A stretch of DNA of 64,000 nucleotides from an uncultured Planctomycetia bacterium (GTDB taxonomy: Bacteria > Planctomycetota > UBA8108 > UBA1146), in assembly GCA_964422295.1 (NCBI GenBank), contig CAYRAM010000015.1, positions 3,272-67,271 on the forward strand. The letters run 5' to 3'. Made by a program: the position numbers and the translations under genes. This document shows, piece by piece, positions 9,103 to 16,330 of the stretch. The stretch's first letter is position 1. Each line of letters starts with the position of its first letter. The notes below the pieces were generated by a model. That model searched no databases. It was not told the DNA's origin and saw only the letters and a program-made list of their open reading frames with translations.

Positions 9103-10017
9103 ATGAAACCTTCGGTGGGTTGGATCGGTACCGGCGTCATGGGTACCTCGATGGCGGGACATTTGCTCACAGCGGGATACCCGCTGGGGGTCCACACGAG
9201 AAGTGTCGGCAAGGCAGCGCCTCTGTTATCCGCTGGGGCGATCTGGTTTGACAATCCATCGGATCTGGCAGCAAACCACGACATCGTCATTTCCATCGTC
9301 GGCTATCCGAGGGATGTGGAAGAGATTTATGGGGGAGAATCGGGAGTTCTCAGTGATAGCGGTTCCGATAGAAAGTGTCGGATCGCCATCGATATGACCA
9401 CGAGCCAGCCAGCGTTGGCGAGATCCCTCTTTGAAAAGGGTGCAGAGGTAGGAATTTCTTTTCTGGATGCACCGGTTTCCGGAGGAGATGTTGGTGCTCG
9501 CAACGGCACACTGAGCATCATGGTTGGCGGAGACGAGGCGAGTTATCGTGAAGTGTTGCCGATCTTTGAGGTGTTGGGTGATGAGATTCGTCTCCAAGGG
9601 GGCCCCGGATCAGGGCAGCACACCAAAATGGTCAACCAAACCATCATTGCCAGCACCATGATCGGAATGTGTGAGGGACTGGTCTACGCTCGCAAGGCAG
9701 GACTGGATCCTGCTTCCGTTCTGCACAGTGTCTCTGGGGGAGCGGCAGGTTCTTGGTCGCTGTCAAATCTGGCCCCGAGGATTCTCGACGACGACTATGC
9801 CCCAGGATTTTTTGTTGAGCACTTCGTCAAGGATATGGAGATCGCTTTGGATGAGTGTGGGCGGATGGGCATCGATCTTCCCGGTTTGGCTCTGGCGCGG
9901 AAATTGTACGAAGAAGTCGTCACTTCCGGGGGGGAGAAGTTGGGAACTCAAGCACTTTATTCCGCAGTCGACCGTCTCAGTCAGGTCCCCGCCAGGGGAG
10001 ATGAAAATCGTGGCTGA
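9103..10017 (+). CDS. NAD(P)-dependent oxidoreductase, 3-hydroxyisobutyrate dehydrogenase/tartronate semialdehyde reductase family
   Basis: GWIGTGVMG, IDMTTS, FLDAPVSGGDVGA, GSGQHTKMVNQ, FVKDMEIA. Start ATG 9103. Confidence 0.92.
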   Translation: MKPSVGWIGTGVMGTSMAGHLLTAGYPLGVHTRSVGKAAPLLSAGAIWFDNPSDLAANHDIVISIVGYPRDVEEIYGGESGVLSDSGSDRKCRIAIDMTTSQPALARSLFEKGAEVGISFLDAPVSGGDVGARNGTLSIMVGGDEASYREVLPIFEVLGDEIRLQGGPGSGQHTKMVNQTIIASTMIGMCEGLVYARKAGLDPASVLHSVSGGAAGSWSLSNLAPRILDDDYAPGFFVEHFVKDMEIALDECGRMGIDLPGLALARKLYEEVVTSGGEKLGTQALYSAVDRLSQVPARGDENRG

Positions 10018-10639
10018 AATCAAATCTGCGCCTTCGGATCAGCTGATTGCCGAGTTGCAAAGAGAGGCTCAGGAGATTCTCGATGAAGTCTGTGAGAGGT
10101 TTCCCCACTACCGGGATGGTCTCCAAGAAACGACGATTCGCCTCAGTGGCCGTCTGACGAGCAGCGCAGGAAACGCATGTCCCAAGCGCAAACAGATCGG
10201 GCTCAGTGTTCCGATCTTCAGTCTCAAGGAGAACCGGGGTGAGTATCGCAACACGGTGCTCCATGAGTTGGCGCACGTCATCGCCGGTCCATCGGTGCGT
10301 TCCCATGGTGAGGAGTGGCGCAATATCTTTCTCGAATTGGGGGGCAACGGTAAGCGAACCCATCAGATGCGTGCACGCGGTCGTCACCATCGACATACGG
10401 TCGGTTGTGAGAAGTGCGGCGAAGGCATCGAAGTGAGTACACGGATGAGAAACTCTATCGCCAAAGGGCGCAGAGATTATCTTCATATCGGCTGTGGGGG
10501 GATTCTCAATTGTCCAGAAGAGTCTACTTCAGAGAAGCTGAAGAGCAGCACCACCAGCGAAACCGCCGTTGGTTGGGTCAGAGAAGTGTCGAAGAAGTTG
10601 CAACAGGGAACACTATTTCGATTCTTCGGGAAACAATGA
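10001..10639 (+). CDS. SprT-like zinc metalloprotease with C-terminal Zn-ribbon
   Basis: RLTSSAGNA, TVLHELAHV, SHGEEWR, CEKC...H..C. Start ATG 10001 or GTG 10010, overlapping the upstream gene. Confidence 0.85.
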   Translation: MKIVAEIKSAPSDQLIAELQREAQEILDEVCERFPHYRDGLQETTIRLSGRLTSSAGNACPKRKQIGLSVPIFSLKENRGEYRNTVLHELAHVIAGPSVRSHGEEWRNIFLELGGNGKRTHQMRARGRHHRHTVGCEKCGEGIEVSTRMRNSIAKGRRDYLHIGCGGILNCPEESTSEKLKSSTTSETAVGWVREVSKKLQQGTLFRFFGKQ

Positions 10640-10796
10640 TCCCTCGCCAAATTTAGAAGATGAAACGTGGTACAACTTGACTCAATTCCGTCTAACATTT
10701 GTAATATCTGGCAAGCCGAATGTGGATTCGTGCCTCAAACTCTGAGATTGTGAGCATGAATCCAGTGCACGAGGCACTCTGGGTTACGGTGTACCT

Positions 10797-10834
10797 TGGG
10801 GGTCTGTGAGATTTTTGGGGGTCTGTGAGATTTT
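10797..10834. repeat. Perfect 19-bp tandem direct repeat
   Basis: TGGGGGTCTGTGAGATTTT at 10797-10815 and 10816-10834, ending 46 bp upstream of the gmd ATG. Confidence 0.9.
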
Positions 10835-10880
10835 CCACGATGGGGAGAACCCAAAAACATTCAGAATTGATTTCCAATCG

Positions 10881-11882
10881 ATGAAAATCGCATTAATCAC
10901 AGGCATCACAGGGCAAGACGGCTCATACCTGGCTGAACTTCTTCTCGAAAAAGGGTATACAGTCCACGGAATCGTGCGACGGTCATCTCTGATCAATACG
11001 CACAGAATCGATCACATATACGAGAAATTGAATCTTCACTACGGTGATCTGACGGATTCAACCAATTTGGTGAGGGTCATCCAGCAGGTGCAACCCGATG
11101 AGATCTATAATCTGGGTGCTCAAAGCCATGTAAAAGTATCTTTTGAGATGCCTGAATATACTGGGCAGACGGATGCCATTGGCACCCTTCGCATTCTTGA
11201 AGCTGTTCGCTTGTTGGGAATTGAAGAAAAGGTCCGAATCTACCAGGCATCAACCAGTGAGTTGTTTGGACTGGTTCAAGAAGTCCCCCAGAGTGAATCT
11301 ACTCCTTTCTATCCACGTTCACCTTATGGTGTTGCAAAGATGTATGGGTACTGGATCGTGAAGAATTACCGTGAGGCATACGGGATGTTTGCGTGCAGCG
11401 GCATACTATTCAATCATGAGTCACCTCGCCGTGGAGAAACATTTGTGACCCGGAAAATTGCCAGGGGTCTCTCTCGCATCTCAGCAGGCACCGAAGATTG
11501 CCTGTACCTTGGTAACCTCAGCGCAAAACGGGACTGGGGGCATGCAAAAGATTACGTTGAGGCAATGTGGTTGATGCTTCAGCAAAGTGAGCCGGAAGAT
11601 TTTGTGATTGCCACTGGTAGGCAGTATTCCGTACGTGAGTTTGTCAATGAAGCGGCTCCTTACTTTGGCATGGAGATCGAATGGAAAGGTGAGGGGCTGA
11701 ATGAAGTGGGATTCGATCTGAAATCCCAAAAAGAAGTCATCAAGGTGAATCCGAGATACTTCAGGCCCACGGAAGTGGATTCTCTTTTGGGAGATGCCTC
11801 AAAGGCAAAAGATAAATTAGGCTGGGAGCCCAAGATTTCTTTCAAGTCTTTGGTTGAGGATATGTGCACCAATGAACAGTGA
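10881..11882 (+). CDS. gmd: GDP-mannose 4,6-dehydratase
   Basis: [70 protein letters not shown]. Start ATG 10881. Confidence 0.98.
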
Positions 11883-12828
11883 AAGCCGTGTTTACGTTGC
11901 TGGTCACACAGGGTTGGTCGGGTCAGCCCTTGTTCGAATGCTTCAACGTAATGACCATTCAGATGTTGTCACTTCACCATCAAGCGAATGGGATTTGAGG
12001 CGGCAAGAAGAAGTTGAGAAGTTTTTTGGTTTATATCAACCTGAGTATGTCTTGCTTGCTGCAGCAAAAGTTGGAGGCATTGGGGCGAACAATTCGTTTC
12101 CCGGACAGTTCATCTACGACAATTTGATGATCCAGTCGAACATCATTCATGCTGCGCATAAGTCTGGGTGCAAGAAACTGTTGTTTCTTGGATCTTCCTG
12201 CATTTATCCAAAGTTGTGTGATCAGCCGATCAAGGAAGAATACTTGATGACCGGTTCCTTGGAGCCGACAAATGATGCGTATGCCATCGCAAAGATTGCA
12301 GGTATCAAAATGTGTCAGGCGTATCGCACTCAGTATGGGTTTAATGCGATATCGCTGATGCCGACAAATTTGTACGGGCCGAATGACAACTTTGATCTTG
12401 ATACTTCACACGTGTTGCCAGCATTGATTCGAAAATTGGATAATGGGAAGCAGTCTAATGAAACGGGGCAGGATGGTACTGACCACTCTCCCGTGACGCT
12501 TTGGGGGGACGGGACTCCCAGGCGTGAGTTTCTTCACGTCGATGATCTTGCCGATGCATGCCTTGCATGCCTGCTGGATTATGATGAGCCTGAGCCCATC
12601 AATATTGGCACTGGCGAGGATATTCAAATTTCTGATTTGGCAGAACTTATTGCTGAGGTGGTTGGTTTTAATGGTGGGTTCGAATGGGATACATCCAAAC
12701 CAAATGGAACGCCCAGAAAAGTTCTCAGTGTCGACAAGATAAAATCGCTTGGTTGGGCACCAAAGATCGACTTGAAATCCGGAATCGAATCGACTTACGA
12801 ATGGTACAAGACAAATGCTTGCGAATGA
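11872..12828 (+). CDS. fcl: GDP-L-fucose synthase
   Basis: [69 protein letters not shown]. Overlaps the gmd end. Confidence 0.97.
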
Positions 12829-13708
12829 TGATCTGGGAAATCATGGCAGGCTTGGAAACCAGATGTTTCAGTATGCCGCACTACGAGGACTCGCCCATAG
12901 GCATGGATATGAATATTGCCTGCCTCCCCGTGAAGTGGTCGCCACTAAGGACGAAAAGTGCCTGAAATCAGACGTAACACTGTTCGAGTGTTTCGATATT
13001 CCGGAAGCACCTAGGATGTTGACCAATTTTGACAAAGTTGAGGAAAGAAGATTTGAGCTGGACCGAAGTCTTTGGGATAGTTGCCCAGACAACATCAGCC
13101 TCTTGGGGTATTTTCAAACTGAAAAATATTTCAAGCACATCGAAGGAGAGATTCGCGAAGCATTTTGCTTTGTTGAAGGAATCAAAGCTGTTTCAGAGAG
13201 TCAATTTGGATCCAGATTCGGTACAGAAGAAGCTGTCTCTGTACATGTTCGAAGAGGTGATTATCTAAACCTGTCAAAGCACTTTCCTTCTCAAGCGAAG
13301 GAATATTATGTGGAAGGATTAGCTGAGCTTCCTGAGGATCTACCGGTATTAATTTTTTCCGATGGAATTGAGTGGTGTAAAGAACAGGAACATTTTCAAG
13401 GTGACAGGTTCTATTTTTCAGAAGGAAATGGGACTGCCGTCGATCTTTGTCTGCAATCTATGTGCTCGTATCACATCATCGCAAACTCGTCATTTTCCTG
13501 GTGGGGTTCCTGGCTGGCAAAAAGCAAAAAAACTATTGCTCCACGCCAATGGTTTGCTGGGAAAAAAGCCAAAAGGGAGATGAGTGATCTTTATTTACCT
13601 GATTGGGTGGTCATCGGAAAAAAGCAATCATATACACCCTCGGTGCTACGACCGATTGAAGGAGTTCTTCAGAAAATTAGCGGATTCCTGAAAATGGATG
13701 ACTGCTGA
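12815..13708 (+). CDS. Alpha-1,2-fucosyltransferase (GT11)
   Basis: GT11 motifs GRLGNQMFQYA, GYFQTEKYF, HVRRGDY, FSD, HIIANSSFSWWGSWL; overlaps the fcl end. Confidence 0.93.
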   Translation: MLANDDLGNHGRLGNQMFQYAALRGLAHRHGYEYCLPPREVVATKDEKCLKSDVTLFECFDIPEAPRMLTNFDKVEERRFELDRSLWDSCPDNISLLGYFQTEKYFKHIEGEIREAFCFVEGIKAVSESQFGSRFGTEEAVSVHVRRGDYLNLSKHFPSQAKEYYVEGLAELPEDLPVLIFSDGIEWCKEQEHFQGDRFYFSEGNGTAVDLCLQSMCSYHIIANSSFSWWGSWLAKSKKTIAPRQWFAGKKAKREMSDLYLPDWVVIGKKQSYTPSVLRPIEGVLQKISGFLKMDDC

Positions 13709-13801
13709 TGAATTGCGATCCGGAAAGTTAGCCAAGTTCACAGATTCGCTCAATCCAGCGATAAAATTGTTTCAACAACCCTTTAGATTCTCTAGGTGTC
13801 A

Positions 13802-14515
13802 CTAAAAGGGAAGATCGTCATCGTCGCCGGAGTCATCCGGTTTCTTTTTTCTCGGCTTTGGAAGACGCTTGGAAAAATCGTGAGTCGCCGGGTACTTCTT
13901 CCAGCGCTGGGCCATAGAGATCACTTCGACCGCATCCAAAGTCTTGTTTTTGCGATCCGATTCGTCGAGGTATCCGCCGAGAAAGATTTTCATGCGTTTC
14001 TTCAGTTTTGAACTGTTGACCCGCTGGATCCGCAGGATTTCGGTTCCCAGGGAAGTACCGAGGCGATAGTCCTGAATCGCCCTGTTGCGCCCACTTTCGA
14101 CCTGCTTCAGCGATCCATTGACCCAAACCAATCCCTGTTCCAGCAGATTTTCGGGGATCCTGGGGGGGTTGAGGGAACCGGTAACGATGGCGTGGATCTG
14201 TACCAGCATCGGTGGGTAGCGAGCCCCTCCAGAGCCGAGTTGTTCCGCCTGTTTCTTGGCGAGGACATGAACCGTCGATCCAGACTCTACATCTTTCAAG
14301 GAAATGATGTCGTGCACCTCGATGATCGTGTCATTGGTTAGGGTCACCTTCAGGGTCCCCTTTTTACTTTTGACCTCGATCAGTTGGCGGCCATCTTCCG
14401 CTTTTTCAATCTTTTGAATGGTGACGAGTCCCGCAAAGGGCTTTTCCTCAGCGAGAAGCACTCCAGTACATGAGTAAACCAAAAGCGAGAGAGTGAGACT
14501 TATCTTGAGGTTCAT
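13802..14515 (-). CDS. Hypothetical secreted protein (possible DUF5666-like beta/OB repeats)
   Basis: N-terminal signal peptide; two beta-rich segments (TLKVTLTNDTIIEV; KIFLGG...TLDAVEVI); acidic tail. Confidence 0.55.
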   Translation of the reverse strand: MNLKISLTLSLLVYSCTGVLLAEEKPFAGLVTIQKIEKAEDGRQLIEVKSKKGTLKVTLTNDTIIEVHDIISLKDVESGSTVHVLAKKQAEQLGSGGARYPPMLVQIHAIVTGSLNPPRIPENLLEQGLVWVNGSLKQVESGRNRAIQDYRLGTSLGTEILRIQRVNSSKLKKRMKIFLGGYLDESDRKNKTLDAVEVISMAQRWKKYPATHDFSKRLPKPRKKKPDDSGDDDDLPF

Positions 14516-16227
14516 TAGAAGAGCCCCTGGGGCAGGCCCTGGTCATCGAGATCGATGTTGAGCAGGGCAGGCTTCGATCCGAGTCCCGGCATCGTCATGA
14601 TGTCACCGGTGAGGGCGTAGAGGAAACCGGCTCCGGCGGAGAGGCGAACATCCCTGACCGTCATGCGGAAGTTCTCCGGAGCACCGATCTTCTTTGGATC
14701 GTCGCTGAAGGAGTATTGGGTCTTGGCCATGCACACGGGCAAATGGCCGAGGCCCAATTTTTCGTATTTTTTTATCGCCTTGCGGGCTGCGGGTTTGTAA
14801 TCAACTCCGTCCGCCCTGTAGATCTCCCGGCACACGGTATTGATCTTTTCCTTGATGGGGATGTCATCGGGATAAAGAGTCGAAAAGTTTGCGGGGACCT
14901 CCTCGCAAGCGCGGACGACAGCTTCTGCAAGTTCAGCGCCTCCTTCGCCACCACGGGAGTGGACATCGGAGACGACCGCATCGAATGCCCCACAGTTTCG
15001 GGCCATCTCGATGACGGCAGCGACTTCGGCATCCGAATCGGTCGGGAAGCGGTTGAGGGCCACGATCACGGGTACCCCGAACTTGCCGACATTTTCGATG
15101 TGTCTGCGCAGATTGCCGATCCCCTCCTCGACGGCAGAAACATCCTCTTGCAGCATCCCCTCCGGAAGAGGTTTGCCGGGGATGACCCTGTAGCGCCCGC
15201 TGTGAACCTTCAGTGCGCGGATCGTCGCCACCACGACGGCGGCATCCGGCTTCAGGCCACTGACCCGGCATTTGATGTTGAAGAACTTCTCAGCACCCAT
15301 GTCGGCCCCAAAGCCACTCTCGGTGACGACGTAGTCACACAGTTTAAGGGCGACACGATCTGCGACGATGGATGAGTTGCCGTGGGCAATGTTGGCGAAG
15401 GGGCCTGTGTGAACAAAGCAGCCGGTCCCCTCCAGCGTCTGCATGAACGTCGGATGGATGGCGTCCTTGAGGACCACCGCCATCGCCCCCGCTGCTCCAA
15501 GATCCTCCGCCGTGACCGGTTCTCCGGAAGTATTGTTGGCGACGATGATTCTGCCGAGGCGTCCCCTCAAATCCGCGGCATCTTTTGACAGGCCGAGGAT
15601 CGCCATCACCTCACTGGCACTGGAGATATCGAAACCTGTTTCCCGGGGGACACCATTCTTTGAACCACCCAGTCCGGTAATCACTTGGCGCAGGGTGCGA
15701 TCGTTAACGTCGAGACATCGGCGCCATGTCACCGTAGCAGGGTCGATGTCACAGGGATTCCCCATCAGGATCGAGGTGTCGACCCACGCAGCGAGCAGAT
15801 TGTTGGCCAAGCCGACCGCATGGGTATCTCCGGTCAAGTGCAGGTTGAAGTCTTCCATGGGGATCACTTGGCTGTGACCGCCGCCGGCTGCTCCACCCTT
15901 GATGCCGAAGACGGGTCCCATCGATGGCTGCCGAATCGTCGATACCGCACTTTTGCCGATGTGATTGAGACCGAGTCCAAGACCGATAGTCGTCACCGTC
16001 TTGCCCTCTCCCAGGGGAGTAGGGTTGATGGCGGTGACATCGATGTACTTGCCATCGGGACGGTCGGCGAGCCGGTCGAGGATCGACAGCGGTACCTTGG
16101 CGATAAAGCGGCCATGGGGAGTCAGCTCCGATTCCTCAATGCCATACTGCGCCGCAATTTCCCGGATATCCTTCAATGGGACAGAGCGGGCGATGTCGAG
16201 ATCAGAGGAGAGTGATTTTTCAGCCAC
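14515..16227 (-). CDS. fhs: Formate--tetrahydrofolate ligase
   Basis: INPTPLGEGKTVTTIGL, GIKGGAAGGG, GPFANIAHG, VTESGFGADMGAEKF, MAKTQYSFSD, IMTMPGL. GTG start 16227 with AAGGAG RBS. Confidence 0.97.
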   Translation of the reverse strand: MAEKSLSSDLDIARSVPLKDIREIAAQYGIEESELTPHGRFIAKVPLSILDRLADRPDGKYIDVTAINPTPLGEGKTVTTIGLGLGLNHIGKSAVSTIRQPSMGPVFGIKGGAAGGGHSQVIPMEDFNLHLTGDTHAVGLANNLLAAWVDTSILMGNPCDIDPATVTWRRCLDVNDRTLRQVITGLGGSKNGVPRETGFDISSASEVMAILGLSKDAADLRGRLGRIIVANNTSGEPVTAEDLGAAGAMAVVLKDAIHPTFMQTLEGTGCFVHTGPFANIAHGNSSIVADRVALKLCDYVVTESGFGADMGAEKFFNIKCRVSGLKPDAAVVVATIRALKVHSGRYRVIPGKPLPEGMLQEDVSAVEEGIGNLRRHIENVGKFGVPVIVALNRFPTDSDAEVAAVIEMARNCGAFDAVVSDVHSRGGEGGAELAEAVVRACEEVPANFSTLYPDDIPIKEKINTVCREIYRADGVDYKPAARKAIKKYEKLGLGHLPVCMAKTQYSFSDDPKKIGAPENFRMTVRDVRLSAGAGFLYALTGDIMTMPGLGSKPALLNIDLDDQGLPQGLF

Positions 16228-16330
16228 GGGATGCTCCTTTTGGGAAAAGTTCAACATGTGAAAGTAGCCGAGAGGACCTTCTGGATCAACTTTTGACACC
16301 TGAGGCCCCATCGGGGCACTTTTCGCAGGG

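Follow-up and report, generated by a model that had tools for sequence, protein, structure and literature searches.

A gmd-fcl-GT11 fucosylation cassette of cyanophage affinity at a precise insertion site in a marine planctomycete genome

We have analysed a 64,000-nt stretch (hereafter the window) from the metagenome-assembled genome (MAG) of an uncultured Planctomycetia bacterium (G000; 2.94 Mb in 70 contigs, 91% complete; the window corresponds to G000:C15:3272-67271), focussing on a cassette of three genes, gmd, fcl and a glycosyltransferase family 11 (GT11) gene, whose products belong to the families that make GDP-L-fucose and transfer fucose. We consider it quite likely that the cassette was transferred from a phage to the planctomycete, possibly with another phage as intermediate. 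Such a transfer had been proposed in a preliminary description made from the letters of the window, and it is supported here by the finding that the closest relatives are cyanomyovirus genes with the same order and overlaps, by a fully supported clade that joins phage and planctomycete copies, and by a GC content at third codon positions (GC3) that is foreign to the host. Both the type of event and the enzyme families are known, and the case is a clean and well-bounded one. The three genes and the insert that carries them are:

10881..11882, + strand: gmd, GDP-mannose 4,6-dehydratase (333 aa; TIGR01472 equivalog, Pfam GDP_Man_Dehyd)
11872..12828, + strand: fcl, GDP-L-fucose synthase (318 aa; Pfam Epimerase, NF047922 as best family)
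12815..13708, + strand: GT11, alpha-1,2-fucosyltransferase-family protein (297 aa; PF01531)
about 10630..13797, unstranded: 3.17-kb insert, delimited by BLASTN synteny and junction sequences, absent from empty-site relatives

The three co-oriented open reading frames (ORFs) are the only ones in the insert and were found at exactly the positions where overlapping gmd, fcl and GT11 genes had been described. The overlaps, of 11 nt between gmd and fcl (11872-11882) and 14 nt between fcl and GT11 (12815-12828), suggest translational coupling. A GTG at 10806 is an alternative, non-conserved start for gmd further upstream. Gmd passes the equivalog cut-off of TIGR01472 in NCBIfam (562 bits vs. 415, residues 2-331) and matches Pfam GDP_Man_Dehyd (PF16363; 1.8e-154, 514.6 bits), and its translation carries the short-chain dehydrogenase/reductase motifs GITGQDG (the N-terminal GxxGxxG), ASTSE (with the catalytic Thr/Glu) and YGVAK (YxxxK). 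Fcl matches Pfam Epimerase (7.5e-65), and NF047922 outscores all other families for it by a wide margin; its nearest annotated relatives are phage genes labelled “GDP-L-fucose synthase.” The Fcl motifs GSSCIYP, YAIAK and TSHV line up in the alignment with those of cellular and phage Fcl, and we take the Ser-x-Cys, the YxxxK and the downstream His to be the catalytic residues, from what is known of the E. coli GMER. The GT11 product matches Glyco_transf_11 (PF01531; 6.7e-28, 98.2 bits vs. a gathering cut-off of 23.9, residues 10-267), and both the HxRRxD(Y) GDP-fucose motif (H144-x-R146-R147-x-D149-Y150) and NSSFSWWG are invariant in an alignment of 20 sequences. A sequence search of the PDB gave zero matches for this protein, to GT11 structures or any others. 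Its AlphaFold2 (AF2) model (predicted local distance difference test, pLDDT, 87) found NodZ, FUT8 and POFUT1 as top PDB folds with Foldseek (E 7e-8 to 1e-5, TM about 0.5), so that the predicted fold matches that of GDP-fucose-dependent fucosyltransferases. The same families form the GDP-L-fucose pathway of E. coli colanic acid and O-antigen (Gmd and Fcl, i.e., WcaG) together with GT11 enzymes such as WbsJ or FutC, and the expected chemistry is the same, leading from GDP-mannose through GDP-fucose to a Fuc-alpha-1,2 glycan. Unlike the E. coli-type pathway, the cassette of the window lies outside any polysaccharide cluster, and the Gmd and Fcl of cells fall into a clade of their own.

The cassette was compared with 50,697 phage records and with uncultivated contigs, including those of IMG/VR. 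Gmd shares 86% identity with the phage contig L106, 82% with Synechococcus phage S-SKS1 and 80-81% with DSL-LC02/03 (as against 92% with the planctomycete G007, see below), and Fcl shares 76% with L106 and 70% with S-SKS1. GT11 reaches 70% against IMG/VR viral contigs and at most 46% among the phage records, where 91 of the 104 records matched are cyanophages, i.e., nearly all of those that are identified. At the nucleotide level the whole cassette aligns with L106 in a single colinear match (71.7% over 2750 nt). The peptide motifs that had been quoted as typical of cyanomyoviruses were all present in the translations, with phage versions identical or nearly so, and Gmd has the same short …VEDMC end as the phage proteins (333 aa). 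Such a cassette is common among viruses of marine cyanobacteria. Of the 80 GT11 loci of IMG/VR, 33 also have gmd and fcl within 10 kb, mostly as a contiguous cassette. In contigs L103, L104, L106 and L187-L192 (Gmd of 333 aa, Fcl of 305-318 aa, GT11 of 265-267 aa) the gmd-fcl-GT11 order and the 11- and 14-nt overlaps are identical to those of the window; in the isolate DSL-LC03 the order is shared and gmd overlaps fcl by 11 nt as well, with GT11 annotated from an earlier start. The flanks mark the close contigs as cyanomyoviruses: L103 is 76% identical in nucleotides to S-SRM01 over half of 8 kb, L187-L189 (about 240 kb) carry Phage_OMP, pstS, PTOX, gnd and zwf, and the genes into which L106 extends match only the Synechococcus myoviruses S-SM2 and Bellamy. 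The L189 record (ena:ERZ28548066, 482,719 bp) has double the length of its 240-kb siblings with the same gene content around the cassette, and is probably a head-to-tail dimer that arose when a circularly permuted cyanomyovirus genome was assembled from long reads.

The known system that comes closest is the head of the glycosylation cluster of T4-like cyanophages (DSL-LC03 and metagenomic contigs related to S-SRM01), which is alike in genes, order, overlaps and Gmd end, at identities of 70-86% in amino acids and 72% in nucleotides, and has a related promoter-like element upstream. In the phages the cassette comes after small phage ORFs and precedes 8-15 more glycosyltransferase and methyltransferase genes (GT6, GT25, GT2, FkbM and others), whereas the planctomycete version consists of the first three genes only, in a bacterial chromosome, with a GC3 about 0.2 higher and a 30-aa tail added to GT11. 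The phage genes are treated as auxiliary genes for the modification of the cell wall or the lipopolysaccharide, and the cluster of S-SCSM1 has been described (PMC9602691). In several phage clusters a gene of GT6, the family of the blood-group A/B transferases, lies directly or a few genes after GT11, the gene for a linkage of the H-antigen type (L190-L192, 11896-13412; L103, 15571-16287; L187, 15261-16010). This suggests that the phages have a histo-blood-group-like glycan pathway of two steps, of which the planctomycete took only the first. Parachlamydia acanthamoebae, a bacterium of the Planctomycetes-Verrucomicrobia-Chlamydiae (PVC) group, sets a precedent with its P-SSM2-type GT6 (PMC3516806), a cyanophage-like glycosyltransferase of the blood-group-antigen pathway; that case differs in concerning GT6 and not GT11, a single gene and not a nucleotide-sugar plus transferase cassette, and another phylum.

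Cellular genomes gave a very different picture. In a survey of Gmd with one genome per species (about 185,000 species) the best matches reached 83% and 76%, both on short MAG contigs, and all the others were at or below 71%. Neither the best hits nor the tree placement fall among PVC or other cellular bacteria, the outcome that would have spoken for a cellular origin. The native Gmd of Planctomycetota (from the same family, order and class) are 56-67% identical and lie outside the phage-planctomycete clade, and gmd is absent from the other five members of the genus and from most of the family. As for GT11, any member was found in only 20 of 401 Planctomycetota genomes, with identities of 43% or less outside this genus. 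We found no report in the literature of a gmd-fcl-GT11 cassette in planctomycetes. Three apparent cellular relatives were rejected: a Crocinitomicaceae MAG contig (L015, PACT01000001.1, Gmd 83%), which is S-SKS1-like phage DNA, and two short contigs with phage-like gene content, one from a Chitinophagaceae MAG (L016, CAYPET010000046.1, Gmd 76%) and one from a “Ca. Fonsibacter ubiquis” MAG (L228, JBMSNN010000032.1, GT11). All three look like fragments of cyanophage glycosylation clusters that probably got into these public genomes as contaminants during binning.

The preliminary description had also noted that the genes are more AT-rich than their flanks, and this holds for both measures used. 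In 600-nt windows the GC content is 0.42-0.48 along the cassette and 0.53-0.61 in the flanks, while GC3 is 0.50 in gmd, 0.47 in fcl and 0.40 in GT11, compared with 0.59-0.69 in seven neighbouring host genes and 0.18-0.36 in the phage cassettes. The cassette is thus intermediate between phage and host, i.e., ameliorated relative to the phages.

The anatomy of the insertion could be resolved by comparison with relatives. The host genes on either side are:

9671..10639, + strand: left flank, SprT-like host gene (PF10263, 2.7e-11; the real start is probably downstream of 9671)
13802..14515, - strand: right flank, host hypothetical protein of 237 aa, convergent with the cassette and syntenic in relatives

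The SprT-like gene is syntenic in all the relatives examined from the genus and the family (in TMED53-type contigs it is called at 219-244 aa), and the 237-aa protein has no match in Pfam or NCBIfam. The site is precisely empty in G001, G003, G004, G005 and G006, of the same genus, and in G011 and G012, of the same family. There the SprT-like gene directly adjoins the convergent 237-aa gene, to the point that in G001, G004 and G005 the stops of both genes overlap (…GATACCTAAAAGGGAAG…). In G000 the SprT-like gene receives new last codons and a stop from the insert, and the right end of the insert is the CTA stop of the 237-aa gene. The cassette is found at the same site, with both sides syntenic, in G007 (GCA_002167285.1, “Planctomycetia bacterium TMED53”), and the TMED53 arrangement is present in five contigs from separate assemblies. 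Both alleles are present in the genome G002, where contig C148 runs out in empty-site sequence and contig C97 begins within a GT11 gene. The two are identical over 110 nt before diverging, a pattern characteristic of an assembly-graph fork, here between an empty and an occupied allele. The last ca. 13 codons of the 237-aa gene also differ between the two (empty allele …KKDDSKEDDDLPF, occupied allele …KKRDDTEEDGDLPF; C148:1-157, C97:1-549; L221, L219), so that the recombination boundary between the G002 alleles lies inside this gene. A full-length cassette that matches the G002 fragment and has the same right junction is carried by a 2962-bp Logan-assembled contig (L225). This type B cassette (GC3 0.36-0.41) is 84% (Gmd), 67% (Fcl) and 62% (GT11) identical to that of G000, and is about equally distant from type A (G000 and G007) and from the phages. 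Altogether the cassette occurs in three of the eight species of the genus and nowhere else in the family, the order or the phylum; gene trees of the locus split the genus into (G000, G007), (G003, G006) and (G001, G002, G004, G005).

Once inserted, the genes appear to have been kept in working order. Between G000 and G007, dN/dS (the ratio of nonsynonymous to synonymous substitution rates) is 0.03 for gmd, 0.05 for fcl and 0.10 for GT11, with dS saturated, and because of these low values we conclude that the genes have been maintained since the two lineages split. We envisage that a cassette of T4-like cyanophages (Kyanoviridae) would have entered a marine planctomycete genus, the one that includes “Planctomycetia bacterium TMED53,” through illegitimate recombination at a point where two housekeeping genes converge, and would have been retained there as a working operon. 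By family knowledge, Gmd would dehydrate host GDP-mannose to GDP-4-keto-6-deoxymannose, Fcl would epimerize and reduce this intermediate to GDP-L-fucose, and GT11 would add the fucose to an envelope glycan, probably in alpha-1,2 linkage on a terminal galactose. The acceptor glycan may acquire a linkage of the H-antigen type, with a possible effect on phage adsorption and receptors. The cassette had been called self-contained, which is overstated, as GDP-mannose must come from the host; from the gene content of the genus such a supply is plausible.

A remnant of the phage regulatory region seems to have travelled with the genes. Upstream of gmd the insert contains:

10677..10705, + strand: promoter-like TTGACT-N17-TGTAAT, inside the insert and conserved in G007
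10796..10833, + strand: tandem repeat with two identical 19-nt units (TTGGGGGTCTGTGAGATTT), 47 nt before the start of gmd

Positions 10675-10710 are 83-86% identical over 36 nt to phage contigs L118, L103 and L104 (E 4e-5, about 1.5 Mb searched). The phage counterpart in L103 and L118, TTGACT-N17-TATAAT, is located about 700 nt upstream of gmd, and a consensus promoter is present within 1 kb upstream of gmd in 27 of 42 phage loci. A scan for consensus promoters does not list the planctomycete element, which has a G at position 2 of the second hexamer, and gave counts not above those of shuffled sequences. The element probably serves as a sigma-70-like promoter that still resembles a phage early promoter, and transcription would probably start there. 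The tandem repeat is found only in G000, G007 having at that place an unrelated sequence with a short hairpin. The annotation of S-SCSM1 includes a wcaG RNA motif that precedes gmd by about 1 kb (L197, 1401-1487); an Rfam scan of 10400-14000 at E up to 1 found neither this RNA nor any other family around the planctomycete cassette.

How firmly the trees speak for the direction of the transfer depends on the method. Quick single-gene trees placed the planctomycete copies several supported nodes inside the viral clades. We have discounted this deep nesting, despite high values in the Shimodaira-Hasegawa-like approximate likelihood ratio test (SH-aLRT), since approximately unbiased (AU) tests exposed equally good or better trees that had been missed. 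In a more careful tree (35 taxa, three genes, C20 mixture model) the planctomycete copies form a group (100/100), the planctomycete plus viral clade is also recovered at 100/100, and the planctomycetes are nested with L106, L104, L189 and S-SKS1 (89/90). This nesting appears in 88% of the bootstrap trees and monophyly of the viral sequences in just 12%. Membership in the phage-planctomycete clade is firm, and the single-gene trees agree with it, while nesting inside the phages is favoured, the AU tests not rejecting a placement outside. The shift of the planctomycete copies to host composition could draw them towards the GC-richer cellular outgroup. An insertion of ca. 12 aa in Fcl was tried as a shared derived character, as it is found in the planctomycetes, L106, S-SKS1 and DSL-LC03; it is lacking in the close relatives L103, L187 and L116 and is therefore homoplastic or recombinant, and we have not counted it as proof.

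Several observations weigh against a transfer from cyanophages as we propose it. The AU tests keep trees in which all viral sequences stand together (p = 0.77 for Gmd, 0.25 for GT11 and 0.075 for Fcl; 0.51 and 0.82 for the concatenations), the constrained tree being even more likely in some runs, and a concatenated tree made from contiguous cassettes alone has the planctomycetes as sister to the phages. Signs of a mobile element are missing as well, since there is no tRNA between 6000 and 18000 and neither repeats at the insert boundaries nor an integrase were found, so that the insert does not qualify as a mobile genomic island or a prophage remnant. With regard to function, the NF047922 score of Fcl (459 bits, 458.9 before rounding, with residues 4-315 of 318 aligned) is slightly below the cut-off of 500, and the ManC-like nucleotidyltransferase that is conserved in the genus scores 64 bits against a cut-off of 373. 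Finally, cyanophages are not known to infect planctomycetes. The trees by themselves do not decide the direction because of the AU tests and the sister placement; the direction that we prefer rests jointly on the composition, the distribution (three of eight species of one genus vs. viral contigs that are diverse and number in the hundreds), the insertion anatomy and the promoter remnant shared with the phages.

The alternative that best survives this evidence, although we regard it as improbable, is that the immediate donor was not a cyanophage but an unsampled AT-rich cell or a planctomycete phage, a common pool from which cyanophages and planctomycetes would both have drawn. It would account for trees in which the planctomycete copies stand outside all sampled viral sequences and would need no infection of planctomycetes by cyanophages, and the IMG/VR contigs come without host labels. 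However, genuine cellular Gmd never exceeds the 71% already mentioned, every close contig with examined flanks has cyanophage markers or matches isolated cyanophages, and an element resembling a phage early promoter travelled with the cassette. Much less probable still is the reverse direction, in which the cassette would be native to the planctomycete lineage and the cyanophages would have taken it from there. One concatenated tree, with the planctomycetes between the contiguous-cassette phages and the cellular outgroup, would fit such a history, but the GC3 of the genes is foreign in the planctomycete (0.40-0.50 vs. 0.59-0.69), the insertion is restricted to a few species, the phage clade is much more diverse and widespread, and most bootstraps of the careful tree place the planctomycete copies inside the phages. 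That a phage fragment was wrongly joined to a planctomycete contig has a negligible chance of being true: the genome is a 70-contig MAG and three other MAGs hold short, seemingly mis-binned phage-like contigs, yet here the cassette sits 14 kb inside a 139-kb contig, both junctions recur in the independent TMED53 assemblies as well as in G002 and L225, the relatives show the exact empty site, the GC3 is ameliorated, and the copies have diverged alongside their hosts under purifying selection, so that a chimeric assembly, which had been raised as a caveat, is excluded.

Transfer from a phage thus being the preferred explanation, the variation found at the site invites a further reading, which we put forward tentatively and think rather unlikely. 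The locus might represent an old presence/absence polymorphism, balanced and shared across species boundaries, with an empty state, type A (G000, G007) and type B (the G002 population and L225). It is conceivable, if equally doubtful, that recombination within the flanks has swapped the alleles, which may also have been replenished from phage DNA. Phages or grazers might maintain them through frequency-dependent selection on a surface glycan that carries fucose, a speculation to which we attach the same low confidence. If this were true, a non-host bacterium would be employing glycosylation genes of viruses as a module with which to vary its own surface.

Besides the three states found at one site, a second feature goes beyond ordinary enzymes and an ordinary event, namely the end of the GT11 protein:

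13616..13705, + strand: GT11 C-terminal tail of 30 aa (residues 268-297), in planctomycete copies only (20-sequence alignment)

This tail (28-30 aa, basic and amphipathic) is common to all three planctomycete lineages and is missing from the 17 non-planctomycete GT11s aligned (17 of 17, 264-272 aa long). Its helical hydrophobic moment of 0.65-1.09 was equalled by at most 29 of 2000 shuffles, its net charge is basic, and the AF2 model has a helix at 279-292, with low pLDDT. A basic-hydrophobic C-terminal tail that binds membranes is known from bacterial GT6 enzymes (PMC3516806) and, because of this analogy, the tail of GT11 is plausibly a membrane anchor; GT11 would have gained it after the transfer.

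The glycosylation clusters that cyanophages carry as auxiliary genes are abundant in the ocean, and their function and fate are poorly known. The case described here is well delimited: the empty site is exact, the independent host lineages number two or three, and the composition lies midway to that of the host. It indicates that the first genes of such a cluster can move out of the virus-host pair to become fixed and selectively kept in an unrelated phylum. The recipient would gain a new nucleotide sugar, its closest relatives having no gmd. Related populations with and without the cassette also offer a natural experiment, in which surface fucosylation could be compared with susceptibility to phages or grazers.

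The neighbourhood of the insert is otherwise unremarkable. The preliminary description had placed the cassette outside any polysaccharide cluster and indeed the neighbours are housekeeping genes. They encode a BNR-repeat protein, a methyltransferase, a 3-hydroxyisobutyrate-dehydrogenase-like protein, the SprT-like and 237-aa hypothetical proteins, FTHFS, RNase HII and TrmH; Pfam identified no polysaccharide gene among them, with no wzx, wzy, manB or manC nearby. The FTHFS ORF (14515-16311, - strand) is listed about 18-20 codons too long at its N-terminus, given that relatives align only from residue ~21 and that a stop occurs in G007 at the position corresponding to residue 20. Selenocysteine, considered for the FTHFS of relatives on account of an in-frame TGA, was rejected, as this TGA lies upstream of the true start.

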